Origin: Rhodothermus marinus DSM 4252
GTDB taxonomy: Bacteria; Bacteroidota; Rhodothermia; Rhodothermales; Rhodothermaceae
Direction: 5' to 3'
NCBI RefSeq assembly: GCF_000024845.1
Contig: NC_013501.1
Span: 1,622,874-1,654,873 of the forward strand
Length of the DNA: 32,000 nucleotides
Each line of letters starts with the position of its first letter. Position 1 is the first letter of the stretch. The translations under genes were made by a program, and so were the position numbers. Below the pieces are notes generated by a model. That model searched no databases and was not told where the DNA came from. It worked only from the letters and a program-made list of their open reading frames with translations. Below are positions 6,515 to 26,212 of the stretch, piece by piece.

Positions 6515-7840
6515 TTACAGCAGCAGATTCAGCGGCTCTTCCAGGTACTGCTGGACGGTCTTGAGGAAGCGGGCGCCCGTGGCACCATCGACGATCCGGT
6601 GATCGCACGAGAGGGTCAGCCGCATCCGCTTGCCGGGCACGATCATGCCGTTTTTCACCACGGGCACGTCGCGGATGGCGCCGATGGCCAGGATGCAGGC
6701 GTTCGGTGGATTGATGATGGCCGTGAATTCCTCGATGCCGTACATCCCCAGGTTGCTCGTGGTGAAGGTCGCCCCTTCCATTTCCTGGGGCTGCAGTTTG
6801 CGCTGGCGGGCTTTCTCGGCCAGCGCGCGCGTCTCCTCGGCGATCTGGCCCAGCCCTTTCTGGTCGGCGTTGCGGATGACCGGCGTCACCAGCCCGTCCT
6901 CCAGCGCCACGGCGATTCCGATATGAATCTCCTTCCACCGGCGAATTTCGCCTTCCTGCTCCAGGTAGGAGGCGTTGATCTCAGGATGCCGGCGCAGCGC
7001 CAGCGCGCAGGCCTTGGTGATCAGGTCGTTGAAGGAGATCTTGGGCCGTTCCTGCGCTTCGGCCAGCTCGTTGAGCTGCTGGCGGAAGGCGATGGCTTTC
7101 TCGACGTCCACGTCGACGGTCAGATAGAAATGCGGCGCCGTGAATTTGCTCTGCGCCAGCCGCCGCGCGATCGTGCGGCGCATCGACGTGATGGGCACCG
7201 ACTCGTAGGGCAGCTCGGGCGCCGGCGTGGGCGTCGGGGCCGGGGCCGGTGCAGGCGCGGCTTCGGGCGCCGGTGCGGCCACTTCGACGGACGGACGCTG
7301 ACGGGCCAGCGCCGCCTCGATGTCGCGGCGCACGATACGCCCCTCGGGTCCCGTGCCCTGAATGGTGCGCAGGTCCAGCCCGTACTCTCTGGCCAGCTTA
7401 CGCGCCAGGGGCGAGGCCTTGATGCGCGCCTCAGCGCCGTCGCCGGCCGTCACCGCGGGAGCCGGAGCGCCATCCCCCGCGCGGGCTGGCTGCTCGGCCT
7501 GCGGTGCCGCTTCGGCCGGTGCAGCCTCCGGCGCCGGCTCCGCCTGCGCGGGCGCCTCTTTCTGGCCGCTGTAGCGCTCCAGAATCTCCGAAATGTCTTC
7601 GCCTTCATCCCCCAGCACGGCGATCAGGCCACCGATGGGGACCGATTCGCCTTCTTTGACCACTTTCTTCAGCAGGACCCCGTCGTCGTACACTTCGAGG
7701 TCCATCGTGGCTTTATCCGTTTCCACCTGAGCGATCACGTCCCCGGCCGACACGCGCTGCCCTTCTTCCACCAGCCACGCCACCAGCACCCCCTCCTCCA
7801 TCGTGTCGCTCATCTTGGGCATTTCAATGGGAATCGCCAT
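6515..7840 (-). CDS. pdhC: Dihydrolipoamide acetyltransferase, E2 of the pyruvate dehydrogenase complex (441 aa)
   Basis: The lipoyl domain carries ETDKATMDLE. Ala/Pro-rich linkers and a peripheral-subunit-binding domain (ASPLARKLAREYGLDL) follow. The catalytic motif is DHRIVDGA. Confidence 0.9.
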   Translation of the reverse strand: MAIPIEMPKMSDTMEEGVLVAWLVEEGQRVSAGDVIAQVETDKATMDLEVYDDGVLLKKVVKEGESVPIGGLIAVLGDEGEDISEILERYSGQKEAPAQAEPAPEAAPAEAAPQAEQPARAGDGAPAPAVTAGDGAEARIKASPLARKLAREYGLDLRTIQGTGPEGRIVRRDIEAALARQRPSVEVAAPAPEAAPAPAPAPTPTPAPELPYESVPITSMRRTIARRLAQSKFTAPHFYLTVDVDVEKAIAFRQQLNELAEAQERPKISFNDLITKACALALRRHPEINASYLEQEGEIRRWKEIHIGIAVALEDGLVTPVIRNADQKGLGQIAEETRALAEKARQRKLQPQEMEGATFTTSNLGMYGIEEFTAIINPPNACILAIGAIRDVPVVKNGMIVPGKRMRLTLSCDHRIVDGATGARFLKTVQQYLEEPLNLLL

Positions 7841-7880
7841 GGCCGTCTTCTATCGCGTTGATTTGATGGTTTCGGGGGAA

Positions 7881-8864
<984 letters not shown>

Positions 8865-8903
8865 GGTCTATCGTCTCGGTTAGGTTCTCGGGGATACACG
8901 AAA

Positions 8904-10046
8904 TCAGGCCAGGAAAGGATAGTCCGGCTGCACGTACACGTCCTCGTAGATAGACTCCAGCGGCGGGAACGGACTCTTCTCGGCGAACTCCACGGACGCC
9001 TGCACCTCCTTCTTCACCTCGTCGTCGATGGCGTCCAGCTCTTCGTTCGTCGAGAGGCCATGCTGGAGCATGTAGCTCTTCAGCCGGATGATCGGATCTT
9101 CTTTCTTCTTGGCTTCCAGTTCTTCTTTGGTACGGTACTTGGCCGGGTCGCTCATCGAGTGCCCGCGGTAGCGATAGGTGCGCACCTCGAGCACCGAGGG
9201 CTGATACTCGCGCGCCAGCGCCACGTACTTGCGCAGGGCCTTCATCACGCTGAAGACGTCCATGCCGTCCACCAGCGCACCCGGCATGTTGTAGCTGGCC
9301 GCGTAGCGGTAGAACTCCGTGTTCGCAAAGGCCCGCCAGACGGCCGTGCCCATCGCGTACTGATTGTTCTCGATGATAAAGATGATGGGCAGCTTGTAGA
9401 GGGCGGCCAGGTTCATGGCCTCATGGACGGTGCCCTGCCCCATGGCGCCGTCGCCGAAGAACGTCAGGCATACGCCGCCGTCCTCTTTGTACTTGTGGGC
9501 GAAGGCGATCCCGACGCCCAGCGGCACGTGTCCCCCGACGATTCCGTGGCCGCCGAAGAACTTCTTTTCGGCCTTAAAGAAGTGCATCGAGCCGCCTTTG
9601 CCGCGCGAGCAGCCGTCGATCTTGCCGAACAGCTCGGCCATGCACTCGTTGGCCGTCATGCCCAGCGCCAGGGCGATCCCGTGATCGCGGTAGGCCGTGA
9701 TGACCGAGTCGTGTCCGACCTTGATCGACCAGGCGGCGCCGGTCGAGACGGCCTCTTCTCCGATGTACAGGTGCAGAAAGCCGGCGATCTTTTGCTTGCC
9801 GTACATCTGGGCCGCCCGCTCCTCGAAGCGACGCTGCAACAGCATGTTACGGTAAATGGCCAGGAGATCTTCCCGGCTCAATCCCAGCTCCTCGTGCGTG
9901 TAGGCACCGGCCGGATAGGTTTCGAACGTCTGCTCAAAGTGAATGGGCTTGGACGGCACCTGCAACTGCACCGCCTGCCCGTTGGGCTGGCCGGCGGCCT
10001 GATCTACCTGCGTCGCCTGCTGCTTCTTTCTGGTCTTGCTGGCCAT
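8904..10046 (-). CDS. pdhA: Pyruvate dehydrogenase E1 alpha subunit (380 aa from ATG at 10046)
   Basis: The motif GFLHLYIGEEAV and the TPP-binding motif GDGAMGQGTVHEAMNLAALYKLPIIFIIENNQYAMGT are both present. The first 76 codons of track ORF 8904..10274 look non-coding (low-complexity, AT-rich), so I start at MASKTRKK. Confidence 0.9.
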   Translation of the reverse strand: MASKTRKKQQATQVDQAAGQPNGQAVQLQVPSKPIHFEQTFETYPAGAYTHEELGLSREDLLAIYRNMLLQRRFEERAAQMYGKQKIAGFLHLYIGEEAVSTGAAWSIKVGHDSVITAYRDHGIALALGMTANECMAELFGKIDGCSRGKGGSMHFFKAEKKFFGGHGIVGGHVPLGVGIAFAHKYKEDGGVCLTFFGDGAMGQGTVHEAMNLAALYKLPIIFIIENNQYAMGTAVWRAFANTEFYRYAASYNMPGALVDGMDVFSVMKALRKYVALAREYQPSVLEVRTYRYRGHSMSDPAKYRTKEELEAKKKEDPIIRLKSYMLQHGLSTNEELDAIDDEVKKEVQASVEFAEKSPFPPLESIYEDVYVQPDYPFLA

Positions 10047-14656: not shown

Positions 14657-15838
14657 TCAGGCGGTGGCGGCCATGGCTTCGTCCGGGCGTGCGGGCGTCG
14701 TGCCGGCCACTTCTTCGAAGAGCCGATCGTAGGCTTCCACGTGTCGTTTCCAGTCGAGGTGCGCCGGAATTTCGCGGAGCCGTTCCGGCGGCAGCGGCCG
14801 CTCCTCACCTTTCAGCAGGGCCGACAGCAGCCGGTAGAGTTCCTCCTCGTCCTCGTACAGCGTGGGCGCGTGCAGCAGCGGCCGATGCAGCGGCTCGGGG
14901 ATCAGCTCCGGATAGCTCAGCCGGTTGGGAAGCAGCGGATGGCAGCCACAGTAGATCGCCTCCAGCACCGCCACCCCGAAAAACTCGTGGCGGGCCGTCG
15001 AGACGATGATGTCGGCCCGGTGCAGCAGGCGGCTGTATTCCTCGAAGTCCTCGGCGTAGCCGTAGTGCAGGATGCGGTCGGCGTAGCGCTCGAAGGCCTT
15101 GTCCAGTTCGTAGGGCTGTTCCTCGAAGCGCTCGCCGGCCAGAATCAGCCGGAAGCGGTGGCCGGCGTCGTCCAGCCGGTTCATCACGCGCAGGAAAACT
15201 TCGGGCGCCTTGTCGTACTCCCAGCGCTGATTCCAGAGAATGATGGGCGGCGGCATGCCCGGACCCCAGTAGCGCGGCCGCCGATCCCCCGCGTACTGGT
15301 CGTGCGCCGACAGATCGATGCCCGGATAGAGCACCGAAGCCTTGGCACGAATCTCCTGCACGGCGTCCAGGTGCGTGTAATCCGGAAAAGCCCGGAGCAG
15401 CTGCGGCAATGCCTCCAGAAATTCCTCCATGTGGAAGCGCGTGTTGAACAGCACCCGATCGGCCGCCAGGCACGACAGGTAGTTGATGTACCCGAAGGCC
15501 GGATCCCGCTCTTTGCCCTCGGGCAGCGGATAGGTCAGCGCATTCTCGTGGAAATAGAGAATGACGGGCACGTGCGCCAGTTTGCTGCGCGTCAGCGACA
15601 GGAAGGCAGGCAGGTTCACCATGTTCGTGGCGAAGATCACATCGGGCCGAAAGCCTTCGTCCCAGGCCTGCAACGCCTTCCGCGCCATGGTGACGGCCCC
15701 GCCGTGCATGCGCCAGCGCCGGTAGCGCGGCGCCATCGTTACCGCATGAAACCGATGCCGGCTGTGGCGAATCAGCCCGTCCAGAAAATTCCTGTGAGAC
15801 CCTCCGTACCAGGGCTCCAGTGCCAGAATGTTCAGCAT
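14657..15838 (-). CDS. DUF3524-plus-GT1 (GT4-like) glycosyltransferase, GTDC1/QTMAN family (393 aa from ATG at 15838)
   Basis: The N-terminus MLNILALEPWYGGSHRNFLDGL matches what I recall of DUF3524. The C-terminal half has a GT-B fold signature (EFFGVAVLEAIYCGCHPLLPNRLSYPELI). The 39 codons upstream in the track ORF are Arg/Cys-rich and look like noise. Confidence 0.7.
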   Translation of the reverse strand: MLNILALEPWYGGSHRNFLDGLIRHSRHRFHAVTMAPRYRRWRMHGGAVTMARKALQAWDEGFRPDVIFATNMVNLPAFLSLTRSKLAHVPVILYFHENALTYPLPEGKERDPAFGYINYLSCLAADRVLFNTRFHMEEFLEALPQLLRAFPDYTHLDAVQEIRAKASVLYPGIDLSAHDQYAGDRRPRYWGPGMPPPIILWNQRWEYDKAPEVFLRVMNRLDDAGHRFRLILAGERFEEQPYELDKAFERYADRILHYGYAEDFEEYSRLLHRADIIVSTARHEFFGVAVLEAIYCGCHPLLPNRLSYPELIPEPLHRPLLHAPTLYEDEEELYRLLSALLKGEERPLPPERLREIPAHLDWKRHVEAYDRLFEEVAGTTPARPDEAMAATA

Positions 15839-15854
15839 GCGTCCTGACGTTTTT

Positions 15855-16133
15855 TTAATGGCTCTGTTGCTGTGCCAGCTGTTGCCGGAGCATTTCTTCC
15901 TCCTCCTCGGTCGTCGGCCGCACGATCGAGACGGCCCGCACCTGGAGTTTTTCACGAAGCACCGGATCGCGCACCTCCTCGGCCGTAACGAACGCCTCTT
16001 CGCCGGGCTTGAGCCGAATGGTGCGCGTGCTCATGGGAATTTCAACCGGCACGTCGTTCGTGTTCTTGATGATCATGCCGCGACGTTTACGACTGGCCAT
16101 GCTGCCCTCCCCGGATGGTTTGTTTGCGGGCAC
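15855..16133 (-). CDS. Small hypothetical protein (92 aa; alternative start 16100)
   Basis: The ORF lies 16 nt upstream of the glycosyltransferase on the same strand and has an acidic C-terminus (TTEEEEEMLRQQL). No recognisable motif. Confidence 0.4.
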   Translation of the reverse strand: MPANKPSGEGSMASRKRRGMIIKNTNDVPVEIPMSTRTIRLKPGEEAFVTAEEVRDPVLREKLQVRAVSIVRPTTEEEEEMLRQQLAQQQSH

Positions 16134-16201
16134 ATGCGTGGGGTATGTTCTTTAAAGTATACAATATTTCCGACGCCGATGCGAACCGTTCCGGCCGCCC
16201 C

Positions 16202-16915
16202 ATGACTGTTTTACCGGATTCTTACAGGCAGACGCTTCGCCGTCTGGGAAGGGCCCTGCGGGCGCTGGTCTATCCATGGCACTGTCTGCACTGCGGCGCA
16301 CGGGCCACACACCCGACGCTTCCGCTCTGCACAGACTGTCTGGCCGCGCTTCGTCGCGTGCCGCCCGGCGAGCCGCTTCGTCGCCTGCACCGGTTGCCGG
16401 AGGCCATCGGCTGCTTCCGGGCCGCCTACAGCCTGTGGTACGAAACCCCGGAGGGGCCCTTTCGCCCGCTGCACCATGCCCTGAAGTACGGCAACCGGCC
16501 GGTCTATGCGCAGCGGCTGGGACGGCTGCTGGGCGAAACATTCCGCGACGAGCTGCAGACGATCGACGTGGTCGTGCCCGTCCCGCTGCACCGCCGCCGT
16601 TTTCTGGAACGCGGCTACAACCAGAGCGCCTGGCTGGCCCGGGGCGTCGGCGAGGTGCTGGGACGCCCGGTAGCTCCGGAACTGCTGGTGCGCGTGCGCG
16701 CCACGCGGAGCCAGACCCACCTGGGTCGCGACGCACGTCGCGCCAACGTGGCCCGCGCCTTTGCGGCGCCTTACCCGGAGCGTGTGGCCGGACGTCACGT
16801 GCTGCTGGTGGACGATCTGCTCACCACCGGCGCCACGGCCGCCTGGGCCGCCCAGGCCCTGCACGAAGCCCACGCTTCTGGCGTCACGCTGCTCACGCTG
16901 GGCCTGGCGGCATGA
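16202..16915 (+). CDS. comF: ComF-family phosphoribosyltransferase-like protein (237 aa from ATG 16202)
   Basis: The N-terminal 4-Cys zinc ribbon is CLHCG...CTDC. Also present are LKYGNRP, VPVPLHRRRFLERGYNQS, and the PRT motif VLLVDDLLTTGATA. Confidence 0.8.
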   Translation: MTVLPDSYRQTLRRLGRALRALVYPWHCLHCGARATHPTLPLCTDCLAALRRVPPGEPLRRLHRLPEAIGCFRAAYSLWYETPEGPFRPLHHALKYGNRPVYAQRLGRLLGETFRDELQTIDVVVPVPLHRRRFLERGYNQSAWLARGVGEVLGRPVAPELLVRVRATRSQTHLGRDARRANVARAFAAPYPERVAGRHVLLVDDLLTTGATAAWAAQALHEAHASGVTLLTLGLAA

Positions 16916-17154
16916 AGCAATTGCAAATTGCCGGACCTAATGTGTGATTGCAGATTCACCGACGAATGACGGCACACCCCATGTACTGGACATGGCTCGC
17001 GGGCACAAAAAGCGGACACAGTAGGCCGTCTCTGTGTGCTGGAAATGCCGTCAGCTGTCCGATAGGGGTGCCCCAAGGTGTGCGCTCGTGCTTTCAGCCC
17101 GGGGTATAAAGCGTGGTCATGGGATACCACGCACATGCACCATGATGCCCGTGA

Positions 17155-17316
17155 TCAAGCAACCCACTCGCCACACAACACCTCCGTTTGACTCAAAACC
17201 AGCTCCACAGCCTGTTCCTGTTTGTCGGGCGGATAGCCATATTTGCGCAGGATACGCTTGACGAGTACGCGCAACTGGGCGCGGGCGCTCTCACGTCTAT
17301 TCCAATCTACTGATAG
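17155..17316 (-). pseudogene. hsdR: 3'-terminal remnant (~53 codons plus stop) of a type I restriction enzyme R subunit gene (hsdR)
   Basis: Hand translation gives (GL)[52 protein letters not shown]. This matches the highly conserved C-terminal tail of HsdR proteins as I remember it (..[26 protein letters not shown]...VL.QAE.L). The frame is closed by a stop at 17350-17352 and has no start codon. Its 5' end overlaps the Abi_C stop. Confidence 0.65.
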
Positions 17317-17806
17317 TCCGAAGATTGGGCTCCCTGCCGTCGTAGGCGCTCAGGATGAGCGCGATGACCGAGTCGGCCGATAGAAGGTACACCCGCGTGT
17401 ACCGGTTCGAGATCGCGTCAAGAAACCCATCCCTACCATGCGCGACGCTGCCGTCCTGATTGCGATACTCGTTCAATGCCTCAGCCAATCTGTTGTGCGC
17501 CGAGATCACCCTACCCAGAGGCCCCACACCCCGCTGATGGCGCAGCCCCAGGGCGTCCAATACGCGGGCAAGCAGCTCCGTTGTCGTCGGCGTGGAGGAA
17601 GCCAGTCCCTCTGCACCCAGCTCGTTGAGCACCGTCCAGCAGACGCACTCCAGGAAGGACTTGATCAACTCGATGACGCTGCTCCCTTCCCCCTCCCAGG
17701 CGCGGACGAGCTCCCGATAGTGTTGTTGAAGATTGGCGGCATCCGGCCAGCGCTCGACAGCGGCACGAAAGGCCGGGGCGATGTCGTCGAGACGGTTGCC
17801 ACTCAT
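17297..17806 (-). CDS. Abi_C (abortive-infection C-terminal domain) family protein, 169 aa from ATG at 17806
   Basis: The C-terminal half reads [23 protein letters not shown]...[21 protein letters not shown]. This fits the Abi_C pattern (RN..G.aHG followed by helices). The start lies 2 nt after the DUF4411 stop. Confidence 0.6.
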
Positions 17807-17808
17807 GT

Positions 17809-18291
17809 CTATCTCTCCAGAACGAATCGAGCTCGCTCGTGCCGCAACATTTCGAAGGGAGTCATCACCTTGATGCCCAGCCCCACACACACGTTCGGAA
17901 TCTTGACCTTATTCCGCGTGTCGGCAGGCTTTTCATGCGTTACAACGACAAACCCACCGGCCAGCGCATGGGCGATAAGCCAGTAGTCCGCCACCTGGAA
18001 AAAAGCGCTCTTGGCAGCCGGGGTGTATTCGTTGCTGTTCACCCATTCGCTCACCGCACCCATCGCTTCGAGAACAGTCGGATCTGGTTTCAAGAAGAAT
18101 CCATCCCGCTGAGACGACACCCAAACCGCCAGTTCATCGTCGCCCGCCTCGAGTTCGTCCTTGACCTTCTCAATGCTGAACACCTTGCCGGCCTGGTTGC
18201 TTTCGACCAGCCAGTCCCAGAAGGCTGGGCAGAAGTCCATGCCGTAATGCAGGTTCTTGGCCGCTATGAAGACGTTGGGCAAGTATCTCAT
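17809..18291 (-). CDS. DUF4411 PIN-like protein (predicted nuclease/toxin component), 160 aa
   Basis: Family-typical strings are LPNVFIAAKNLHYGMDFCPAFWDWL, VADYWLIAHALAGGFVVVTHE and KVKIPNVCVGLGIKVMTPFEMLR. The start overlaps the upstream stop (ATGA). Confidence 0.8.
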   Translation of the reverse strand: MRYLPNVFIAAKNLHYGMDFCPAFWDWLVESNQAGKVFSIEKVKDELEAGDDELAVWVSSQRDGFFLKPDPTVLEAMGAVSEWVNSNEYTPAAKSAFFQVADYWLIAHALAGGFVVVTHEKPADTRNKVKIPNVCVGLGIKVMTPFEMLRHERARFVLER

Positions 18292-19439
18292 GCCGGAATC
18301 TCCAGACGTTGCGCCAGCTCATAAAAGGTCCGGCTTTTTCGCACGCCGAGAAGGCGAAACGCCTCGGTAAAGGGCGTTTGTCCCTCCAACGTGCTCACGA
18401 TCACCGCCCTGGCGAATCGCTTGCCCACATGAGCGCCCAGGGTGTTGTAAAAATCTCCGCCCTTTCCTCCGGGCGAAAGCTGCTTCAACCGCTGCAACTC
18501 TTGTTGCCATGCGCTGTCCAGTGTTTCCCGATCGATCCACCCGGCATCGAACAGACGGCGCAGGATCACCAGGGTGCTGACCTTGAAGCGCCGCGCCAGC
18601 CGCTCCAGCGTCTCGGGTAAAGGTTCGCCTGCCACCAGGTTCGCTCGCACGGCTTCAAGCGGAGCAAGGAATTCCGCCGCCACCGCATTGCACCAGCGCT
18701 CGGTCCGCTCGTCGGGAAGAACGCGCGCGTCGCTATCGCTTACGCCAGATTGCCCCAACCAGAGGTGCGCCAGTTCATGGGCCAGGGTGAACATCTGTCC
18801 CGCCTTGCTGTCCCTGCCATTGATGAACACCAGCGGGGCCAGGTCGTCGGCCAGCGCGAATCCGCGAAACTCGGAGACATCGAGCGGACGGTGGGTATTG
18901 CTGCCGACAATGCCGCTGACCATCACCAGCACCCCGGCATCTTCGGCCAAGCCGATGAACTGTCGCAGCGCTTCAGTCCATGTCGTCATTCGGGAACGGG
19001 CTTCTATATCGAACCCGAGCTGTTCGCGCATCCGAGCGGCCACCTCCGCCGGGGCATCCTGAAGCGTCGCCGAGCCCACAAAGGCAACCGGCGGTTCGCC
19101 ATATAGCCGGGCAAACTCCCGGTACCAGGCCTGCCGCTGCTGACAGATGTAGATCGTTTCCAGCAGGTCGGCGCTGGGGGAGCTATGGCGTGCCTTCGAC
19201 GTGGTGCGAAAATCGGGGATCGGCAATACCTCTTCCGGCGGTTCGGCCAGAAAGAAATAACCGATAGGAGTGTGGGTGGCGCGGGCGAAGTCCTCGAGCT
19301 GCCTGAGCGTGGGTTGTCCCCGCCCTTCTAACCAGTCTTCGAGCTTCTTGAAACGACGAGACAACTCCTCCGGCATGCGGCCAGAGCGCCGCATGGCCCA
19401 ATACAAAAGATCGGGTTTAACAGGCACTCGCAAGGTCAT
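18288..19439 (-). CDS. ImmA/IrrE-family (COG2856/M78) zinc metallopeptidase with an N-terminal XRE-like HTH, 383 aa
   Basis: The HTH-like segment is PTLRQLEDFARATHTPIGYFFL. The zinc site is FTLAHELAHLWLG (HExxH), with a downstream ERWCNAVAAEFLAP. A GGAGG Shine-Dalgarno lies 7 nt upstream of the ATG. Confidence 0.8.
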   Translation of the reverse strand: MTLRVPVKPDLLYWAMRRSGRMPEELSRRFKKLEDWLEGRGQPTLRQLEDFARATHTPIGYFFLAEPPEEVLPIPDFRTTSKARHSSPSADLLETIYICQQRQAWYREFARLYGEPPVAFVGSATLQDAPAEVAARMREQLGFDIEARSRMTTWTEALRQFIGLAEDAGVLVMVSGIVGSNTHRPLDVSEFRGFALADDLAPLVFINGRDSKAGQMFTLAHELAHLWLGQSGVSDSDARVLPDERTERWCNAVAAEFLAPLEAVRANLVAGEPLPETLERLARRFKVSTLVILRRLFDAGWIDRETLDSAWQQELQRLKQLSPGGKGGDFYNTLGAHVGKRFARAVIVSTLEGQTPFTEAFRLLGVRKSRTFYELAQRLEIPA

Positions 19440-19504
19440 ACCGCATCCTCCAGAATCTTCTCTTCATCTGGCATGGATCTCCAATGGATGCCATATGTAT
19501 CTGA

Positions 19505-21022
19505 TCAATATTGCCATCTGAACAACTCATACTCCTCAGGAGCGATGGCTGGCTGCATGGATTTCTTCTTTTCCTCATCCACTATGGGTTTATTTAGCAC
19601 ACCTTTGAGCTCATCACTTTTGATCCAATCATTTTCCCATAAGGATTTTTTCTCCTTTCCCTCGGCAATAAGACAAAGCCGTTCAGACCATTCATCCTGG
19701 AATCCAAGCGGAATAGCAATTCGCTGTAGCCATACTTCCATATATCCAGTATTAGGAAGCCTTCTAAATTTTCCCACTATTTTATTAAAAATTTCTTTCT
19801 TATCACTTTCGGATTTCAAAAACCCTAATAAGCGACTGATGATTGCAGCACAGACTGGATATGTCCGCGGATTACCGTAAGCTATGTCCACAACAATACT
19901 GATAAGAACATGCGGATTTGAGCAGGTCTTCGTTTTATCCAGTTTCTTTCGAAACTCAGCGAGTCCTCGTAGCAAGCTCCCACTATTCGGATAGCAACGA
20001 GCATGGTCATGCAAAATTAATAAATGCCTTACCAGGTCATTATCCTCCTGGACTCTGAACAACCACGCTAGTTTATCTTCTTTAATGGAAGATTGAATGA
20101 TACTATCACTGATAACTGTTTTTTCGGAGTTTAATTTCAATCCCAAATTGCTCAATACCTCTGTAAGAATCTTCAGTATTTCTTCAGCATCATACTTACT
20201 TCTTACAAATATCCTATAATCGTCACGATAACGCAGGATCTTATAGTTTTTATCCTGAAGGGTAGTCTTCGCTAGCTTTTCACTAAGGCATAAATCCGCA
20301 TAGCCAAGAACCATCTCCGCTATGAAGTCCATCAGTATCGATCCTTGCGGAATCCCATTGGTCTGTCCATATCGCATATTTTGAATGCATTTGTCTATTC
20401 TATTTCCAATTAGAGACAAGTCTTTTCTTTCCTTCTTAGCTTTCTCTTTACTGTGAAGCGCCCAAGCGATTGAGTGGGTATAGATCTGACCGTAACAATC
20501 GTTGATGTCCGTATGAGCTAAAACCTCGAACTCCAAGGCCAACTCTATTGAGCGCTGCTCGATTTCTTGCCACCACACGAGTATCTGCTCCTCTTTGTCC
20601 TTAGACCTTGAGGTGGACTCTACCGGAATACTCACGCAGTCAACGACTGAGTCGTTCTTGAATTGTAAAAAGCGTTCCTGAATAAACTTCCAATTTTCCG
20701 GATGCGTAATCGCGTTTACCAAGTCAACATAGAGTACGGGGTGTATTACCTCAAACGGTCTCCACGCATGCCTTCCGTCTTTATTGGATAATAGCAAATA
20801 GTTAACTCCTTCGAGGTGTGCGGGCCGTATTCCCTGCTCGCATAGATTGTCAAGTTCTTCGTCGTGCAGGTAATTGTCCACCTCGCTTAGAACAGACTCG
20901 AAAGTGAAATAGAGTGGAAGATCAATGTCGCAGTAACTCTCCGGCTTCAGGAAGAATGCCCGGGCTTCATCTGCGCTCATATCAAGAACCAGGCGTGCAC
21001 TACTATTATTTCTCTCGCTCAT
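19505..21022 (-). CDS. Stand-alone reverse transcriptase (Abi/UG-like, non-retron, non-intron) with a ~200-aa helical C-terminal extension, 505 aa
   Basis: RT motifs are read in order. Motif 1/2 is NKDGRHAWRPFEVIHP, motif A is HTDINDCYGQIYTHSI, and motif B is GIPQGSILMDFIAEM. Motif C is ILRYRDDYRIFV, with the catalytic DD encoded at 20219-20224. Motif D/E is LGLKLNSEKT. The gene is far more AT-rich than anything else in the window. Confidence 0.85.
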   Translation of the reverse strand: MSERNNSSARLVLDMSADEARAFFLKPESYCDIDLPLYFTFESVLSEVDNYLHDEELDNLCEQGIRPAHLEGVNYLLLSNKDGRHAWRPFEVIHPVLYVDLVNAITHPENWKFIQERFLQFKNDSVVDCVSIPVESTSRSKDKEEQILVWWQEIEQRSIELALEFEVLAHTDINDCYGQIYTHSIAWALHSKEKAKKERKDLSLIGNRIDKCIQNMRYGQTNGIPQGSILMDFIAEMVLGYADLCLSEKLAKTTLQDKNYKILRYRDDYRIFVRSKYDAEEILKILTEVLSNLGLKLNSEKTVISDSIIQSSIKEDKLAWLFRVQEDNDLVRHLLILHDHARCYPNSGSLLRGLAEFRKKLDKTKTCSNPHVLISIVVDIAYGNPRTYPVCAAIISRLLGFLKSESDKKEIFNKIVGKFRRLPNTGYMEVWLQRIAIPLGFQDEWSERLCLIAEGKEKKSLWENDWIKSDELKGVLNKPIVDEEKKKSMQPAIAPEEYELFRWQY

Positions 21023-21092
21023 CGCACACCTTCTGGGATACCTTTTCTACGTTTGACTGGTTCAATGTAATCTATAATTCCGATCAGTTTCT

Positions 21093-21719
21093 TCACCGAA
21101 ACCGCCGCAAATCCACCTGTTGCATGCAGGCGGCCGCTTCGTCGGCGTCGTTGGTGGCTACCACCACCAGTCGGCCTTTCGCCCGGGCTTCTTCAAGCAA
21201 TGCTTCAACCAGCCGGCGGCCGGCCTCGTCCAGGTTCGAGCGCGGCTCGTCCAGGAGCCAGAGCGGCGGATCGGCCAGCAACGCGGCGGCCAGCCGGAGC
21301 CGCTGGCGCATGCCCGAGGAGAAAATCGCCACGGGCTCGTCGGCAAACGCCCGGAGCTGCACCCGTTCCAGCCAGCTTTCCACACGCCGGCGTCCGTCAG
21401 AAAGGCCCCGGGCCCGGGCGATAAACGTCAGGTTCTCCCGCGCGGTAAAGCCGTCGTAGAGCTGCAGGTAGGGCGCAGCCAGCCCCACGTAGAAGGGACG
21501 ATCGGTGGGCTCGACCTGGCGACCGTTGACCTGCAACCGCACCTCGCCCTCCGAGGGACGCAGCACGCCCGCCAGCATGCGCAAAAGCGTCGACTTGCCC
21601 GAGCCGTTCGGGCCCGTCACGGCCAGCGTCTCGCCGGCCGCGATCGTGAACGAAAGCCCCGCAAACAGGCGCCGGTAACCGAAGCGCTTGCCGAGCGCGA
21701 TCACTTCCAGTCGGTCCAT
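21093..21719 (-). CDS. ABC transporter ATP-binding protein (CcmA-like size, 208 aa from ATG 21719; no permease gene adjacent)
   Basis: Walker A is GPNGSGKST, the signature is SSGMRQRL, and Walker B is LWLLDEP. Confidence 0.8.
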   Translation of the reverse strand: MDRLEVIALGKRFGYRRLFAGLSFTIAAGETLAVTGPNGSGKSTLLRMLAGVLRPSEGEVRLQVNGRQVEPTDRPFYVGLAAPYLQLYDGFTARENLTFIARARGLSDGRRRVESWLERVQLRAFADEPVAIFSSGMRQRLRLAAALLADPPLWLLDEPRSNLDEAGRRLVEALLEEARAKGRLVVVATNDADEAAACMQQVDLRRFR

Positions 21720-21802
21720 GCCTGCAAGATAAGCAACCGGACCGCTCCGAAACGCATCGCTGCTCCCGCGGTATATCCTTTCGTTCAAGTTTTACTTCAG
21801 CC

Positions 21803-24160
21803 GTGGCGGAGACGACGCACCTGTACGACGACGTCGCGCTGTTCGGCCGGGATCCGGCGCCGGGGCTGCTGGACGTACAGCCGCTGCTGGACGGCGACGC
21901 CGACACGCCGGCCCGCGTGCGCCTTTACTGGCGCAGCGCGGACGGCACGCTACGCGTCGAAGAGCAGCCGTTCTATCCGTTCTTCCTGCTGGCCGACATC
22001 CGGTTGCTCCGGGGCTACCCGCGGCGGCGTTTTCGCTTTCGCCCGCTGGCAGGGAACGAGCACTTCCGCTATCTGGTCGTCTTCGAAAGCTGGACCGCCT
22101 ACCGCGAAGCGCTCCGTCACATCGAGCAGGCGGCCGCCGGTGCCGAGCGCCCGCCCGTCTATCAGATCAACGCCCCGGCCCAGCAGTACCTGATGCAGTC
22201 GGGCCGCACCTGCTTCAAAGGCATGACGCTCGACGACCTGCACCGCCTCCAGCTCGACATCGAGGTCTACACCGAATCGGGTTTCCCGAACGCGGAGCGT
22301 CCCGAAGATCAGATCGTGCTCATCGCGTTGCACGACAACCGCGGCTGGCATCGCGTGCTGGACATACGCGATGCCGGCTCCGAAGCGGCCCTGCTGCGTC
22401 AGTTTGTGGACGTGCTGCGCGAGCGGGACCCCGATGTGCTGGAAGGCTACAACCTGCTGGCTTTCGACCTGCCCTATCTGCAGCGGCGTTGCCAGCGCTA
22501 TGGTATTCCCCTGCAACTGGGCCGCGACGGCAGCGAGCTCCGCACGTTTCCGGCCAGCATTCGCTTTGCCGAGCGCACGATCGACTACACGGCCTTCGAG
22601 ATCGCCGGCCGGCACGTGATCGACGTCTACTTTCAGGTGCTGGCCTTCGACGTGTTCAAGCGGGACCTGCCCGACTACACGCTGAAGACGGTCGCCCGCT
22701 ACTTCGGCCTTTCGACGCGCGAGCGCACCTACATCGCCGGCACCGAGCTTTCCCGCACCTGGACCGAAGATCCCGATCGCGTGCGCGCTTACGTGCTCGA
22801 CGACGCCATCGAAACGGAGCGGCTGGCCCGTATGCTCTCGGGCTCGGCCTTCTACCTGACGCAAATGGTGCCCATGCCCTACGGACAGGTAGCGCGTACG
22901 GGACCCGCCGCCAAGATCGAAGCGCTCATGGTGCGCGAGTACCTGCGGCGTCGCCACAGCATCCCCTGCCCCCAATGGGGCAGCCAGGCGCTGGGCGGCT
23001 ACACGGACGTCTTCGTGACCGGCGTGGTCGGCCCCATCGTTTACGCCGACGTCGAAAGCCTCTACCCGTCCATCATGCTCACCTACGGCATCCAGCCGCG
23101 CACCGATCGGCTGGGGCTGTTTCAGCAGCTGTTGCGTCGGCTGACCGAGCTGCGTCTGGAAACCAAGCGCCGGATGCGTGAAGCCGAGTCCGAAGCGCTG
23201 CGCCGTGAACTCGACGCCCGGCAGAACTCCTACAAGATCCTGATCAATTCCTTCTACGGCATGCTGGGCTTTTCGCTGGCGGCGTTCAACGACTTCGAGG
23301 CGGCCGATCGCGTGGCGGCCACCGGTCAGGAGGTGTTGCGCCGGCTCATCCAGGCCATCCAGCAGGCCGGCGGACAGGTCGTCGAGGTGGACACCGACGG
23401 CGTGCTCTTCATGCCCCCGCCGGACGTCCGGGACGAAGCGGCCGAACGCGCCTTCGTCGAGCAGCTCGGCGAGGCCCTTCCATCCGGCATTCGCGTGAGC
23501 TACGAGGGCCGTTTCAAAAAAATGCTTTCCTACAAAAAGAAAAACTACGCGCTGCTGGGCTACGACGGCAGCCTGAAGTTCAAAGGGTCCTCGCTGATTT
23601 CCCGCTCCGTCGAGCGCTTCGGCCGACAGTTCGTGCGCGAGGCCATTGCGCTGCTGCTGGAGGAAGACGTTCAGGGACTGCACGAACTCTACCTGCGCTA
23701 CCGCGCCCGCATCCTGCAGCACGACTGGGAAAGCGTCCACGACTTCGCCCGCACCGAGACGCTGAAAGACACGCTCGAAAACTACCTGGCCGATGTGGCG
23801 GCCGGGCGGCGTCCCCGCGCGGCCGCCTACGAACTGGCCCTTCGCCTGCGCGAGGCCGGCCGTCCCGTGCGCAAAGGGGATCGGATCACCTACTACATCA
23901 CGGGCACGCACCCCAACGTGGCCGCCTACGAAAACTGCCGCCTGGCCGAGGAATGGGATCCGGCCAATCCGGACGAAAACGCGGCGTACTACCTGCGACG
24001 TCTGGACGAATTTGCCCGCAAGTTCGAGCCTTTCTTCACCCCGGCCGACTTCCGACGCATCTTCTCCCCTGACGACCTGTTCGGCTTCTCGGCCGAGGGC
24101 ATTCGCCCGATCCGCCGGGTACGCGCGCCTGAAGAAGTGTTTTCATCCACCCCGTTTTGA
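21803..24160 (+). CDS. polB: Family B DNA polymerase (Pol II-like), 785 aa, GTG start
   Basis: The exonuclease motifs are Exo I LQLDIEVY, Exo II YNLLAFDLPYL and Exo III YVLDDAIETERL. The polymerase motifs are A (DVESLYPSIM), B (KILINSFYGMLG) and C (VEVDTDGV). Confidence 0.9.
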   Translation: MAETTHLYDDVALFGRDPAPGLLDVQPLLDGDADTPARVRLYWRSADGTLRVEEQPFYPFFLLADIRLLRGYPRRRFRFRPLAGNEHFRYLVVFESWTAYREALRHIEQAAAGAERPPVYQINAPAQQYLMQSGRTCFKGMTLDDLHRLQLDIEVYTESGFPNAERPEDQIVLIALHDNRGWHRVLDIRDAGSEAALLRQFVDVLRERDPDVLEGYNLLAFDLPYLQRRCQRYGIPLQLGRDGSELRTFPASIRFAERTIDYTAFEIAGRHVIDVYFQVLAFDVFKRDLPDYTLKTVARYFGLSTRERTYIAGTELSRTWTEDPDRVRAYVLDDAIETERLARMLSGSAFYLTQMVPMPYGQVARTGPAAKIEALMVREYLRRRHSIPCPQWGSQALGGYTDVFVTGVVGPIVYADVESLYPSIMLTYGIQPRTDRLGLFQQLLRRLTELRLETKRRMREAESEALRRELDARQNSYKILINSFYGMLGFSLAAFNDFEAADRVAATGQEVLRRLIQAIQQAGGQVVEVDTDGVLFMPPPDVRDEAAERAFVEQLGEALPSGIRVSYEGRFKKMLSYKKKNYALLGYDGSLKFKGSSLISRSVERFGRQFVREAIALLLEEDVQGLHELYLRYRARILQHDWESVHDFARTETLKDTLENYLADVAAGRRPRAAAYELALRLREAGRPVRKGDRITYYITGTHPNVAAYENCRLAEEWDPANPDENAAYYLRRLDEFARKFEPFFTPADFRRIFSPDDLFGFSAEGIRPIRRVRAPEEVFSSTPF

Positions 24161-24250
24161 AAAAATCCGGGCGCCCTCCCGCCACGAAACCATTCCCGAA
24201 TCCATTGCGTTCGGACCGCGATTCTGGCACGTAAACCCGCCGGGAAATCC

Positions 24251-26212
24251 TTGGACGAAACGGCTCAGCCTCTGGAGATCGACATCGAAGCCTGGACGCC
24301 CCGGGCGGCCGAAGCACTCTACCATGTCCCGGCATGGGGCGCGGGCTTTTTCCACGTCAACGAAGCCGGACACGTAGCCGTCCGCCCGCTGGGGCCGGAA
24401 GGTCCCTCCATCGATCTGCTGGAAGTGATCGAGCGGCTGCGTGCGCAGCATGTGCATCCGCCCGTTCTGCTGCGCTTTCAGGATCTGCTGCGCACCCGCG
24501 TCCAGCAGCTCAACCGGGCGTTTCGCCGCGCCATTGCCGAGACGGGCTACGCCAACACCTATCGGGGCGTCTATCCGATCAAGGTGAACCAGCTCCGCGA
24601 GGTGGTTGAAGAAATTCTCGAAGCCGGAGCGCCTTTCTCGTTCGGGCTGGAATGCGGCTCCAAGTCGGAGCTGCTGGCCACGCTGCCCTACCTGGACCGG
24701 GACGACATGCTGCTGATCTGCAACGGCTGTAAGGACCGGGCCATGATGCAGCTCATCCTGGCGGGGCAGCGCCTGGGCAAAAAGGTGATCCCGGTGATCG
24801 AACGCATGGCCGAGTTCCGGCTGCTGCTGGAGGCGCTGGAAGATCGCTCGCTACCGCAGGCCGGTGTGCCGGCCATCTTCGGCGTGCGCCTGCGGCTGTC
24901 GGCGACGGGCGCCGGCCTGTGGTCGGAGTCCGGCGGTGAGACGTCCAAGTTCGGCCTGTCGCTGTCGGAGCTACTGGGCCTGCTCGACCGCATCGGCGAC
25001 GGTCACTCGGGGGTGTCGCTGCAGCTGCTGCACTTTCACATGGGCAGCCAGATCGCCCATCTGGCACACATTCGCGAGGCGGTCACCGAGGCCGCGCGGA
25101 TCTATGCCCGGCTGCGCAAGCGTGGGCTGGGCATCACCTACCTGGACATCGGCGGCGGCCTGGGCGTCACCTACGAGGCGGGCAACCCGGACGCCCCCGG
25201 CAGCATCGACTACTCGCTGGGCGAGTACGCCCATACGGTCGTGGCGACGGTGCAGCAGGTCTGCGAGGCCGAAGGCGTCCCGCCGCCCGTTCTGATCTCC
25301 GAAAGCGGCCGGGCCCTGACGGCCTACCACTCGGTCTTCGTGACGGAGGTGCTCGACACCCGTTCCCGACACTACGAATTGCCTGCCTGGGCCAATGGAG
25401 GCATCCATCCTCTGCTGGAGGAGCTGCGCCGGCTCTACGACGCGGCCGCCTCCGAGCCGCTGTCCGCAACGTACGAACAACTTGAAGCCGTGCGGCAGCA
25501 GGTCAACCGCTCGTTTCGGGAAGGGGCCCTGTCTCTGGAGCAGAAAGCGGAAGCCGAACAGCTCTACTGGGCTACCTGTGCCCGCCTGTGCGAGCGCCTG
25601 CCCCGCTCGTCCGAAGCGCTGGAGACGCTCCCCGAAAACCTGCGCCAGCTGCCCACGCGACTGGCCGATCATTATCTGTGCAACTTCTCCGTCTTTCGCT
25701 CGCTGATCGACCACTGGGCCATCGGCCAGCACTTCCCGATCATGCCCATTCACCGCCTGGATGAACCGCCCACACGCCACGGCATCCTGATCGATCTGAC
25801 CTGCGACTCCGACGGTCAGGTCAGCGATTTCGTCACCCCGGTCGGCGAAAAGCACACGCTTGAACTCCATCCGCTGCGCCCGGACGAGCCCTACTACCTG
25901 GGCTTTTTCCTGATGGGTGCCTATCAGGACATCATGGGCGATCAACACAACCTTTTCGGCCGCGTCACCGAAGCGCACGTCTATCTGGACGAAGACGAGC
26001 CGGGGAATTTTTACATCGAGCTGATTCTGCCGGGCGCGACCGTCGAAAAAGAACTGGCTCAGGTGCAGTACTACCCGAACGACCTCGAGCGTCGCATGAA
26101 CCGGCTCATTCAGGAGAAGGTGCGCACCGGTGCGCTGCGGCCACGGGAAGGCGTGGAATTGCTGGAACTGTACCGGCGCGTCTTTCGGACTTCCACCTAT
26201 CTGGAACACTGA
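24251..26212 (+). CDS. speA: Biosynthetic arginine decarboxylase (653 aa, TTG start per ORF track)
   Basis: The N-terminus reads YHVPAWGAGFFHVNEAGHVAVRP, and the PLP-lysine motif is YPIKVNQ. Also present are DIGGGLGV and ESGRALTAYHSV. Confidence 0.9.
   Translation: MDETAQPLEIDIEAWTPRAAEALYHVPAWGAGFFHVNEAGHVAVRPLGPEGPSIDLLEVIERLRAQHVHPPVLLRFQDLLRTRVQQLNRAFRRAIAETGYANTYRGVYPIKVNQLREVVEEILEAGAPFSFGLECGSKSELLATLPYLDRDDMLLICNGCKDRAMMQLILAGQRLGKKVIPVIERMAEFRLLLEALEDRSLPQAGVPAIFGVRLRLSATGAGLWSESGGETSKFGLSLSELLGLLDRIGDGHSGVSLQLLHFHMGSQIAHLAHIREAVTEAARIYARLRKRGLGITYLDIGGGLGVTYEAGNPDAPGSIDYSLGEYAHTVVATVQQVCEAEGVPPPVLISESGRALTAYHSVFVTEVLDTRSRHYELPAWANGGIHPLLEELRRLYDAAASEPLSATYEQLEAVRQQVNRSFREGALSLEQKAEAEQLYWATCARLCERLPRSSEALETLPENLRQLPTRLADHYLCNFSVFRSLIDHWAIGQHFPIMPIHRLDEPPTRHGILIDLTCDSDGQVSDFVTPVGEKHTLELHPLRPDEPYYLGFFLMGAYQDIMGDQHNLFGRVTEAHVYLDEDEPGNFYIELILPGATVEKELAQVQYYPNDLERRMNRLIQEKVRTGALRPREGVELLELYRRVFRTSTYLEH

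Follow-up and report, generated by a model that had tools for sequence, protein, structure and literature searches.

Rmar_1410 is a chromosomal member of the Abi-P2 family

A 32,000-nucleotide stretch of the Rhodothermus marinus DSM 4252 chromosome (NC_013501.1, positions 1,622,874 to 1,654,873; here called the window) carries on its minus strand an ATG-started open reading frame (ORF) of 505 codons at 19505-21022, Rmar_1410 (ACY48298.1), whose public name is only "RNA-directed DNA polymerase." Profile searches, comparison with PDB entry 7R08, and Foldseek place this gene in the Abi-P2 family, and from its sequence and predicted structure we judge it highly probable, at roughly 90%, that the product is a bona fide abortive-infection polymerase of that family. 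An initial annotation, made from the DNA letters alone, had described a 505-amino-acid (aa) orphan reverse transcriptase (RT) with an intact YRDD active site, had placed it in the Abi and unknown-group (UG) defense lineage with Abi-P2 among the named candidates, and had allowed that it might fit no group. The reading frame and the lineage were borne out, and the last possibility gave way to a confident placement by profile hidden Markov model and by solved structure.

Against the PADLOC models, Rmar_1410 matched the AbiP2 profile with 668.7 bits (E = 1.3e-201), its residues 8-503 covering positions 3-485 of 489, while the second-best model, RT_UG14, scored 183.9 bits and thus fell 485 bits behind. 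When the same profile was calibrated on known members, the founding protein, ORF570 of P2-EC30, scored 536.8 bits and the protein of phage pro147 scored 531.5 bits. The R. marinus protein is therefore nearer to the consensus than are the proteins after which the family is named, and it belongs to a large environmental branch that ranks above the E. coli proteins on this profile. Among solved structures, the top match by far was Abi-P2 itself (7R08; E = 9.5e-89, query residues 11-501 against chain residues 34-540).

An AlphaFold2 model computed with 30 homologues (pLDDT, 87.6; pTM, 0.88) was compared with the PDB using Foldseek, and six chains of 7R08 came out on top, with TM scores of 0.82 to 0.87 over 512 to 518 alignment columns. 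Residues 308-487 of the model contain only helices, 11 in number, and the Abi-P2 helical domain is likewise described as having 11 helices (PMC9508834). The long helical extension of the initial annotation is thereby supported, and we agree that this domain has no nuclease or protease motifs. The RT-like fingers and palm domain comprises residues 1-305 (20108-21022, minus strand), as delimited by Pfam RVT_1 (residues 166-305, E = 8.7e-12), the EC30 alignment, and the predicted secondary structure; the C-terminal alpha-solenoid, residues 306-505 (19508-20107, minus strand), occupies the place of the thumb, according to the predicted helices and the superposition on 7R08. All five of the RT motif strings quoted earlier were found intact and in order, at residues 80-95, 170-185, 223-233, 264-272 (RYRDDYRIF), and 293-302.

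Alignment with EC30 Abi-P2 using MAFFT gave 37.5% identity over 498 columns and equated EC30 Tyr61 with Tyr38, Tyr282 with Tyr265, and Asp284 and Asp285 with Asp267 and Asp268. The catalytic YRDD motif (residues 265-268; 20219-20230, minus strand) aligns with EC30 Y282-R-D-D285, and Tyr38 (codon at 20909-20911, minus strand) is the predicted priming tyrosine; both were invariant in family alignments of 30 and 31 sequences. In the structural and biochemical study of Abi-P2 by Figiel 2022 (PMC9508834), Tyr282 contacts DNA, Y61F kills synthesis, and Y46F stays active. The position of EC30 Tyr46 is Phe23 in Rmar_1410, which is consistent with the activity of the Y46F variant.

Rmar_1410 is collinear with the E. 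coli P2-EC30 protein over its full length, with palm and fingers joined to an 11-helix solenoid in place of a thumb; the priming tyrosine, the equivalent of Tyr282, and the YRDD motif are kept, and each is a stand-alone gene with a GC content below that of its host. Unlike the 546-aa EC30 protein (Odegrip 2006), it has 505 aa and a shorter N terminus, and it sits in the chromosome of a thermophile from the Rhodothermota, within the remains of a type I restriction-modification (R-M) operon. These differences do not put it outside the family. The profile match, two-domain collinearity, YRDD motif, priming tyrosine, 11-helix solenoid, and stand-alone gene of Abi-P2 are all present. Rmar_1410 lies not in the hypervariable part of a P2-like prophage, where the family was historically located, but in the chromosome, with ccmA, the decayed operon, and polB. 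Because the family spans many phyla, plasmids, and viruses, the prophage location does not define it. For classification the case carries little weight, beyond the fact that Rmar_1410 can now be named as an Abi-P2-family polymerase with a predicted priming Tyr38.

Lower Foldseek ranks were taken by DRT6 and DRT4 (TM score, 0.62), AbiK (about 0.53), and AbiA (about 0.43). AbiK of Lactococcus lactis (7R06/7R07) resembles the family in being protein primed and template independent, in pairing an RT-like with a helical domain, and in its three-fold symmetry. Its helical domain, however, shows no sequence relationship to that of Abi-P2 and consists of 16 helices, the priming Tyr44 is not strictly equivalent, and the protein is a hexamer; the PADLOC AbiK model gave Rmar_1410 only 110.8 bits. 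DRT4 (UG15) and DRT6 are, similarly, class 1 UG/Abi enzymes encoded by one gene each, and they synthesize random single-stranded DNA (ssDNA) from a priming tyrosine, but they form separate families, with 16 to 21% identity in the Foldseek alignments and a PADLOC Drt6 score of 178.8 bits versus the 668.7 bits of AbiP2.

The gene survives from a decayed type I R-M operon

At loci L005, L007, and L010, the RTs most closely related to Rmar_1410 all lie within type I R-M operons. In L005, whose RT is 88% identical, the order hsdM-hsdS-unk435-RT-M78-DUF4411-Abi_C (384 aa)-hsdR is found at the same chromosomal site as in the window; L007 (79% identical RT) has methylase-RT-unk1179-HSDR_N, and L010 (65% identical RT) has hsdM-hsdS-RT-unk212-hsdR. 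By blastn, window 21019-21198 corresponds to L005 1-191, at the end of ccmA (79% identity), window 17310-21028 to L005 4650-8375 (90%), and window 16817-17310 to L005 12077-12573; the window therefore lacks two segments that L005 contains. Gone are hsdM, hsdS, the gene for a 435-aa protein, half of Abi_C, and all but the end of hsdR, and what remains is the RT, M78, DUF4411, a truncated Abi_C, and an hsdR relic. Rmar_1410 is thus no orphan, as it had been called; it survives from a type I R-M operon in which defense genes were embedded and is still followed by the M78/DUF4411 pair and the truncated Abi_C.

Deletion junction A (21019-21028, minus strand), defined by blastn and by junction alignment with L005 and also present in metagenome contig L094, joins the start of the RT to the flank on the ccmA side, which supplies a GAAGG ribosome-binding site, and accounts for the loss of hsdM, hsdS, and the 435-aa gene. 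It lies 1 to 6 nucleotides (nt) 5' of the RT ATG, in a TGTnnGATGA microhomology, and because of this position the upstream flank is not native to the RT. The 70-nt spacer (21023-21092, minus strand) that separates the RT from a ccmA-like gene (21093-21788) comes from the ccmA 3' flank, by its homology to L005 1-191, and not from the RT cassette. On the other side, the 65-nt spacer (19440-19504, minus strand) between the RT and the M78-peptidase gene (18288-19439) moves with the RT in L005 and L007 (L007 homology extends over 19435-21026, and homology to L092, the locus of a sibling R. marinus strain, resumes at 19473). Both lengths had been given exactly in the initial annotation.

Junction B, at 17310, interrupts Abi_C near codon 165, from where the sequence continues with the final 51 codons of hsdR. 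The relic so formed, 51 codons and a stop (17155-17310, minus strand), has a translation identical to the C-terminal 51 aa of L005 HsdR and matches L005 12077-12232 and L092 from 15841. The presence of this relic shows that the difference between the loci is due to deletion in the lineage of the window and not to insertion in L005. The truncated Abi_C gene (17297-17806, minus strand), recognized by Pfam Abi_C, gene calls in L004 and L094, and junction B, encodes 169 aa compared with 384 aa in relatives and takes its last codons from the hsdR relic.

In L092 (R. marinus GCA_000565305.1), an intact type I R-M operon occupies the same site with another cassette in the place of the RT, and window 19474-21068 has no counterpart there. 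The L092 cassette (6526-10004) encodes a 759-aa PrrC-related ABC ATPase (PADLOC PDC-S06, 932 bits; PrrC model, E = 1.7e-10), a 79-aa HsdS C-terminal fragment, and ORFs of 276 and 44 aa of unassigned function. Since this slot holds a PrrC-related cassette in the sibling strain, we regard the RT as a swap-in cassette in a variable slot of the type I R-M operon; the HsdS fragment hints that recombination within the conserved 3' end of hsdS exchanges cassettes. PrrC is the classic occupant of the hsdS-hsdR slot in type I R-M operons (PMC1484252, PMC2610378), and the RT of the relatives has the same hsdM/hsdS-hsdR position as PrrC in the type Ic operon of EcoprrI. Unlike the window RT, which has no R-M genes beside it, PrrC is an anticodon nuclease that cleaves tRNA, and the two proteins are unrelated. 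With its base-level junctions, the locus preserves an unusually clean natural history, in which a low-GC RT cassette was swapped into a PrrC-type hsdS-hsdR slot and two later deletions stripped the R-M genes in DSM 4252, leaving the RT directly behind the first ribosome-binding site of the island, downstream of ccmA.

The slots of the relatives also hold a 435-aa protein (L005 3163-4470) and a 1,179-aa protein (L007 2291-5830), neither with a Pfam or PADLOC match, and a 212-aa protein (L010 10616-11254) with a weak match to an IS200-like Y1 transposase (E = 2.5e-5). These three are candidate uncharacterized defense or mobility genes.

Distribution and gene neighborhoods of the family

Over 6,000 proteins in the databases belong to the Abi-P2-like RT family at E <= 1e-10. 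Relatives were present in at least 568 species-representative genomes of many phyla, the best 80 being 46 to 56% identical to Rmar_1410, as well as on 14 viral contigs and 119 plasmids; PMC8632793 likewise reports the family from many phyla, plasmids, and viruses. In 51 of 54 loci, from many phyla, the RT was lower in GC than its distal flanks, by a median of 8.5 points, and Rmar_1410 itself has 42% GC compared with 56 to 67% in neighboring genes and about 65% in the genome, a feature absent from the initial annotation. The family behaves as a persistently AT-rich mobile gene that has not ameliorated to its hosts.

Gene context was surveyed in 80 loci (L012-L091), 38 of which were well flanked, with at least 4 kb upstream and at least 6 kb downstream of the RT. 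In these 38, hsdM or hsdS lay upstream in 21 and was accompanied by hsdR downstream in 18, and 17 had no detectable R-M genes. Because hsdM, hsdS, and hsdR were detected by phmmer with two query sets only, the R-M-embedded fraction of 18 to 21 in 38 is a lower bound. Upstream sequence was sufficient in 67 loci, and in 21 of these hsdS ended no more than 100 nt from the RT start, the stop and start often overlapping; this count is likewise a lower bound. The 21 loci without R-M genes contributed 109 neighboring ORFs, among which Pfam revealed no recurrent family (at most two occurrences each) and no missed R-M gene among the 25 commonest. When R-M-embedded and solitary RTs were compared across the family, the two were intermixed: the nearest neighbor had the same status in 36 of 56 cases, versus 29.8 ± 4.4 after shuffling (p = 0.09). 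This distribution fits a self-sufficient single-gene module that moves through defense islands.

In Escherichia phage pro147 (L002 1547-5536), the Abi-P2 gene adjoins an RT of the retron Ec48 type and a membrane effector, so that the hypervariable region of this prophage carries two RT-based defense systems side by side.

Selection on Rmar_1410 and alternative readings of the locus

Over the longer term, the RT has evolved with ratios of nonsynonymous to synonymous substitution rates (dN/dS) of 0.21, 0.31, and 0.12 in comparisons with L005, L007, and L010, respectively. Metagenome contigs L094-L097 carry an RT that is 94% identical to that of the window. Of the four, only L094 covers the island at both ends; it has the same two deletion junctions as the window and 97.7% nucleotide identity over 4,158 bp. 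Because the junctions are shared, divergence of the window from L094 post-dates the loss of the R-M genes. Between the two, 31.5 nonsynonymous and 10.5 synonymous changes were counted in the RT, corresponding to a dN/dS of 0.77 in what is a single pairwise comparison with small counts, analyzed by the simple Nei-Gojobori method. This value is above 0.2 (P = 2.5e-5). The corresponding ratios were 0.04 for M78 and 0.22 for the truncated Abi_C, and the latter value suggests that the shortened protein may retain some function.

An alignment of 28 other family members has 148 columns with conservation of 90% or more; of the 29 amino acid differences between the two RTs, 8.5 were expected in these columns and none was found there (P = 3e-5). 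By lineage, 12 of the changes are window derived, 8 are L094 derived, and 9 are ambiguous. Since conserved columns were spared, selection continues to act on the conserved core of the RT, and decay explains the pattern less well than diversifying selection or a relaxation limited to variable positions.

One alternative gives this history a different meaning. The RT may serve as a second line of defense in the manner of PrrC, held latent by the type I R-M complex and freed by a phage anti-restriction protein, with its regulator lost in the window. PrrC is kept silent by its linked type I R-M enzyme (PMC1484252, PMC2610378), and a PrrC-related ABC ATPase takes the same slot in the sibling R. marinus strain. 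The RT of L005, L007, and L010 lies exactly in an hsdM-hsdS-X-hsdR slot, hsdM or hsdS upstream together with hsdR downstream recurs in the 18 well-flanked loci noted above, with hsdS often overlapping the RT start, and the RT evolved faster after the R-M genes were lost. An extension of this idea is that Abi-P2 polymerases lodged between hsdS and hsdR are wired to type I R-M and that the DSM 4252 allele is now being retuned for autonomous action; such retuning would explain the burst of change at variable, and possibly surface, positions. Against coupling, E. coli P2 Abi-P2 functions from a prophage without R-M genes, nearly half of the well-flanked loci (17 of 38) have no detectable R-M genes, embedded and solitary RTs are intermixed in the family, and the allele in the decayed operon has endured without damage to its conserved core. 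Defense genes in general, moreover, tend to be embedded in R-M operons; a UG/Abi survey treats operon formation with type I R-M as a generic hallmark of defense. We therefore consider coupling unlikely, and the retuning of the DSM 4252 allele is a doubtful proposition as well. A literature search combining Abi-P2 with type I R-M turned up R-M papers only and no specific account of Abi-P2 in the hsdS-hsdR slot, which is no proof of novelty. With about half of the RT clade in that slot, by a search-limited estimate, a coupling between restriction and Abi-P2 is nonetheless a testable question.

Several observations weigh against the reading of Rmar_1410 as a working Abi-P2 polymerase. Its identity to the sole characterized Abi-P2 enzyme is 37.5%, and the first 23 to 31 or so residues of the EC30 protein, though disordered in the crystal, are absent. 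The native region upstream of the RT, including its promoter region, was replaced through deletion, so that expression of the gene is putative; a consensus scan, uninformative for this phylum, found neither a sigma-70-like promoter nor a terminator in either spacer. The gene-wide dN/dS of 0.77 is indistinguishable from 1 (P = 0.44). Finally, L004, a Logan assembly of other reads from this strain (SRR018990), departs from window 9803-31022 in a single place, an extra T at window 19826-19829 (TTATTTAGGG versus TTATTAGGG; about 11195-11197 in L004), which shifts the frame at about codon 399 and yields a 406-aa gene call. The extra T could be a sequencing error or could mark a real inactivated subpopulation.

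The last three of these points, along with the destruction of the surrounding operon by two deletions, are what would be expected of a nonfunctional relic, an ORF drifting toward a pseudogene in a decaying defense island. A drifting ORF would not, in contrast, be expected to spare every one of the conserved columns while changing in both lineages. Intact copies of the ORF are also present in the window, L003, and metagenome contigs L094-L097, every catalytic and priming residue is present, and the GAAGG ribosome-binding site stands just 5' of the ATG. We consider decay of the gene quite improbable and favor a retained Abi-P2 polymerase.

It is also very unlikely that the RT is one part of a multigene system with M78, DUF4411, and Abi_C. 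The order RT-M78-DUF4411-Abi_C is kept in the window, L005, and L094, on one strand and with short spacers. The parts come apart elsewhere: L092 retains M78-DUF4411-Abi_C with its other cassette in place of the RT, L007 and L010 retain the RT with other neighbors, and any of the three genes was found near the RT in just 1 of the 80 context loci, as a weak match. The 42% GC of the RT contrasts with 56 to 62% for the three genes, and in the comparison with L094, the dN/dS values of the RT and M78 differ about 18-fold.

The M78 gene (18288-19439, minus strand) encodes an ImmA/IrrE metallopeptidase (Pfam Peptidase_M78, E = 9e-17) that is RmrA-like (PADLOC RmrA, E = 3e-15; capP, E = 3e-14), and we regard it as an independent neighbor of the defense or toxin-antitoxin type. 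It overlaps by 4 nt the gene for a DUF4411 protein (17809-18291, minus strand; Pfam DUF4411, E = 2.9e-53), its likely partner, as the pair is kept in L005, L092, and L094. Across all Rhodothermus-like loci examined the pair was retained, and the M78 dN/dS of 0.02 to 0.04 indicates strong purifying selection. The pair (17809-19439) is one that we take to resemble a RosmerTA-type or toxin-antitoxin-type defense pair.

Predicted mechanism and absence of an associated RNA

Abi-P2 is described as a stand-alone multidomain protein. It forms a trimer able to stack as a hexamer and makes DNA without a template; its helical domain takes the place of the thumb and, as seen in a structure of the AbiK-DNA adduct, stabilizes the single-stranded product (PMC9508834). 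By homology, Rmar_1410 would assemble as trimers and possibly as hexamers. The hydroxyl of Tyr38, in a loop of the fingers subdomain (between helices α2 and α3 in Abi-P2), would serve as the primer, from which the YRDD palm would polymerize deoxynucleoside triphosphates, without a template, into ssDNA of random sequence, and the 11-helix C-terminal solenoid at the thumb position would hold the nascent strand. Predicted from conserved residues and from the modeled fold, this synthesis would need neither a noncoding RNA (ncRNA) nor a partner gene, and Rmar_1410 would work alone.

For DRT4 and DRT6, a phage DNA-binding protein guards the ssDNA made by the enzyme against host exonuclease, and the product builds up to toxic levels (PMC12783706). 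By analogy, the most likely trigger logic for Rmar_1410 is of the same kind, in which a phage DNA-binding protein would shield the ssDNA from host exonuclease and so cause its toxic accumulation. The outcome would presumably be abortive infection, a phenotype shown only for the E. coli P2 enzyme, against T5 (cited in PMC8632793).

R. marinus grows at about 65 °C. A thermostable DNA polymerase that needs neither primer nor template could serve enzymatic DNA synthesis as well as structural work on Abi-P2-DNA complexes.

The initial annotation had seen no room near the RT for a retron msr/msd, an intron ribozyme, or the template repeat of a diversity-generating retroelement (DGR), and the searches agreed. 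At gathering thresholds, Rfam matched only tRNA-Thr in the whole window, and at E <= 1 it gave just two noise matches around the RT, to a microRNA model and a long ncRNA model. Folding of the RT flanks did not differ significantly from that of shuffled sequences (upstream, z = +0.87; downstream, z = -1.32), and a scan of 15000-25000 for DGR template and variable repeat pairs or for repeats bounding the island found only chance-level repeats of 26 to 30 nt. The annotation had further allowed for a template ncRNA hidden in the short flanks or a neighboring gene. That suggestion falls away, since Abi-P2 is stand-alone, protein primed, and template independent (PMC9508834) and no ncRNA is expected, and since the upstream flank is not native to the RT.

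NCBIfam models (Drt4, Drt3b, group II maturase, AbiA, and retron) matched only the RT core of Rmar_1410, far under their cutoffs. Individual candidates were rejected on this and the preceding evidence: a retron RT (no Rfam match; NCBIfam retron St85, 20.5 bits versus a cutoff of 235), a group II intron RT (no Rfam intron; TIGR04416, 61.9 bits versus 300; flanks of 70 and 65 nt), a DGR RT (no template and variable repeat pair in 15000-25000), and DRT4 (NCBIfam Drt4, 127.6 bits versus 450). A template-dependent RT of the retron, DRT2/DRT9-like, group II intron, or DGR kind with an overlooked RNA, or an RT of some other or novel UG/DRT group, is effectively refuted by these scores, by the 485-bit lead of AbiP2, by the lack of any Rfam family, structured flank, or repeat pair, and by an upstream flank that was not co-inherited with the RT, the weak cross-matches to Drt4, Drt6, UG14, group II maturase, and retron models being expected of any RT domain.

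Genes on the ccmA side of the island

The ccmA-like gene (21093-21788, minus strand) encodes a CcmA-type heme-exporter ATPase (TIGR01189, 146.6 bits; cutoff, 131.6) with no adjacent ccmB or ccmC, and the defense island occupies the place where its downstream partners might be expected. Divergent from it, beside the defense island, is the gene for a bacterial family-B DNA polymerase of 785 aa (21803-24160, plus strand) with exonuclease and polymerase domains. This polymerase gene recurs in L092 and L004, is named in R. profundi, and appears to belong to the conserved core genome of Rhodothermus.

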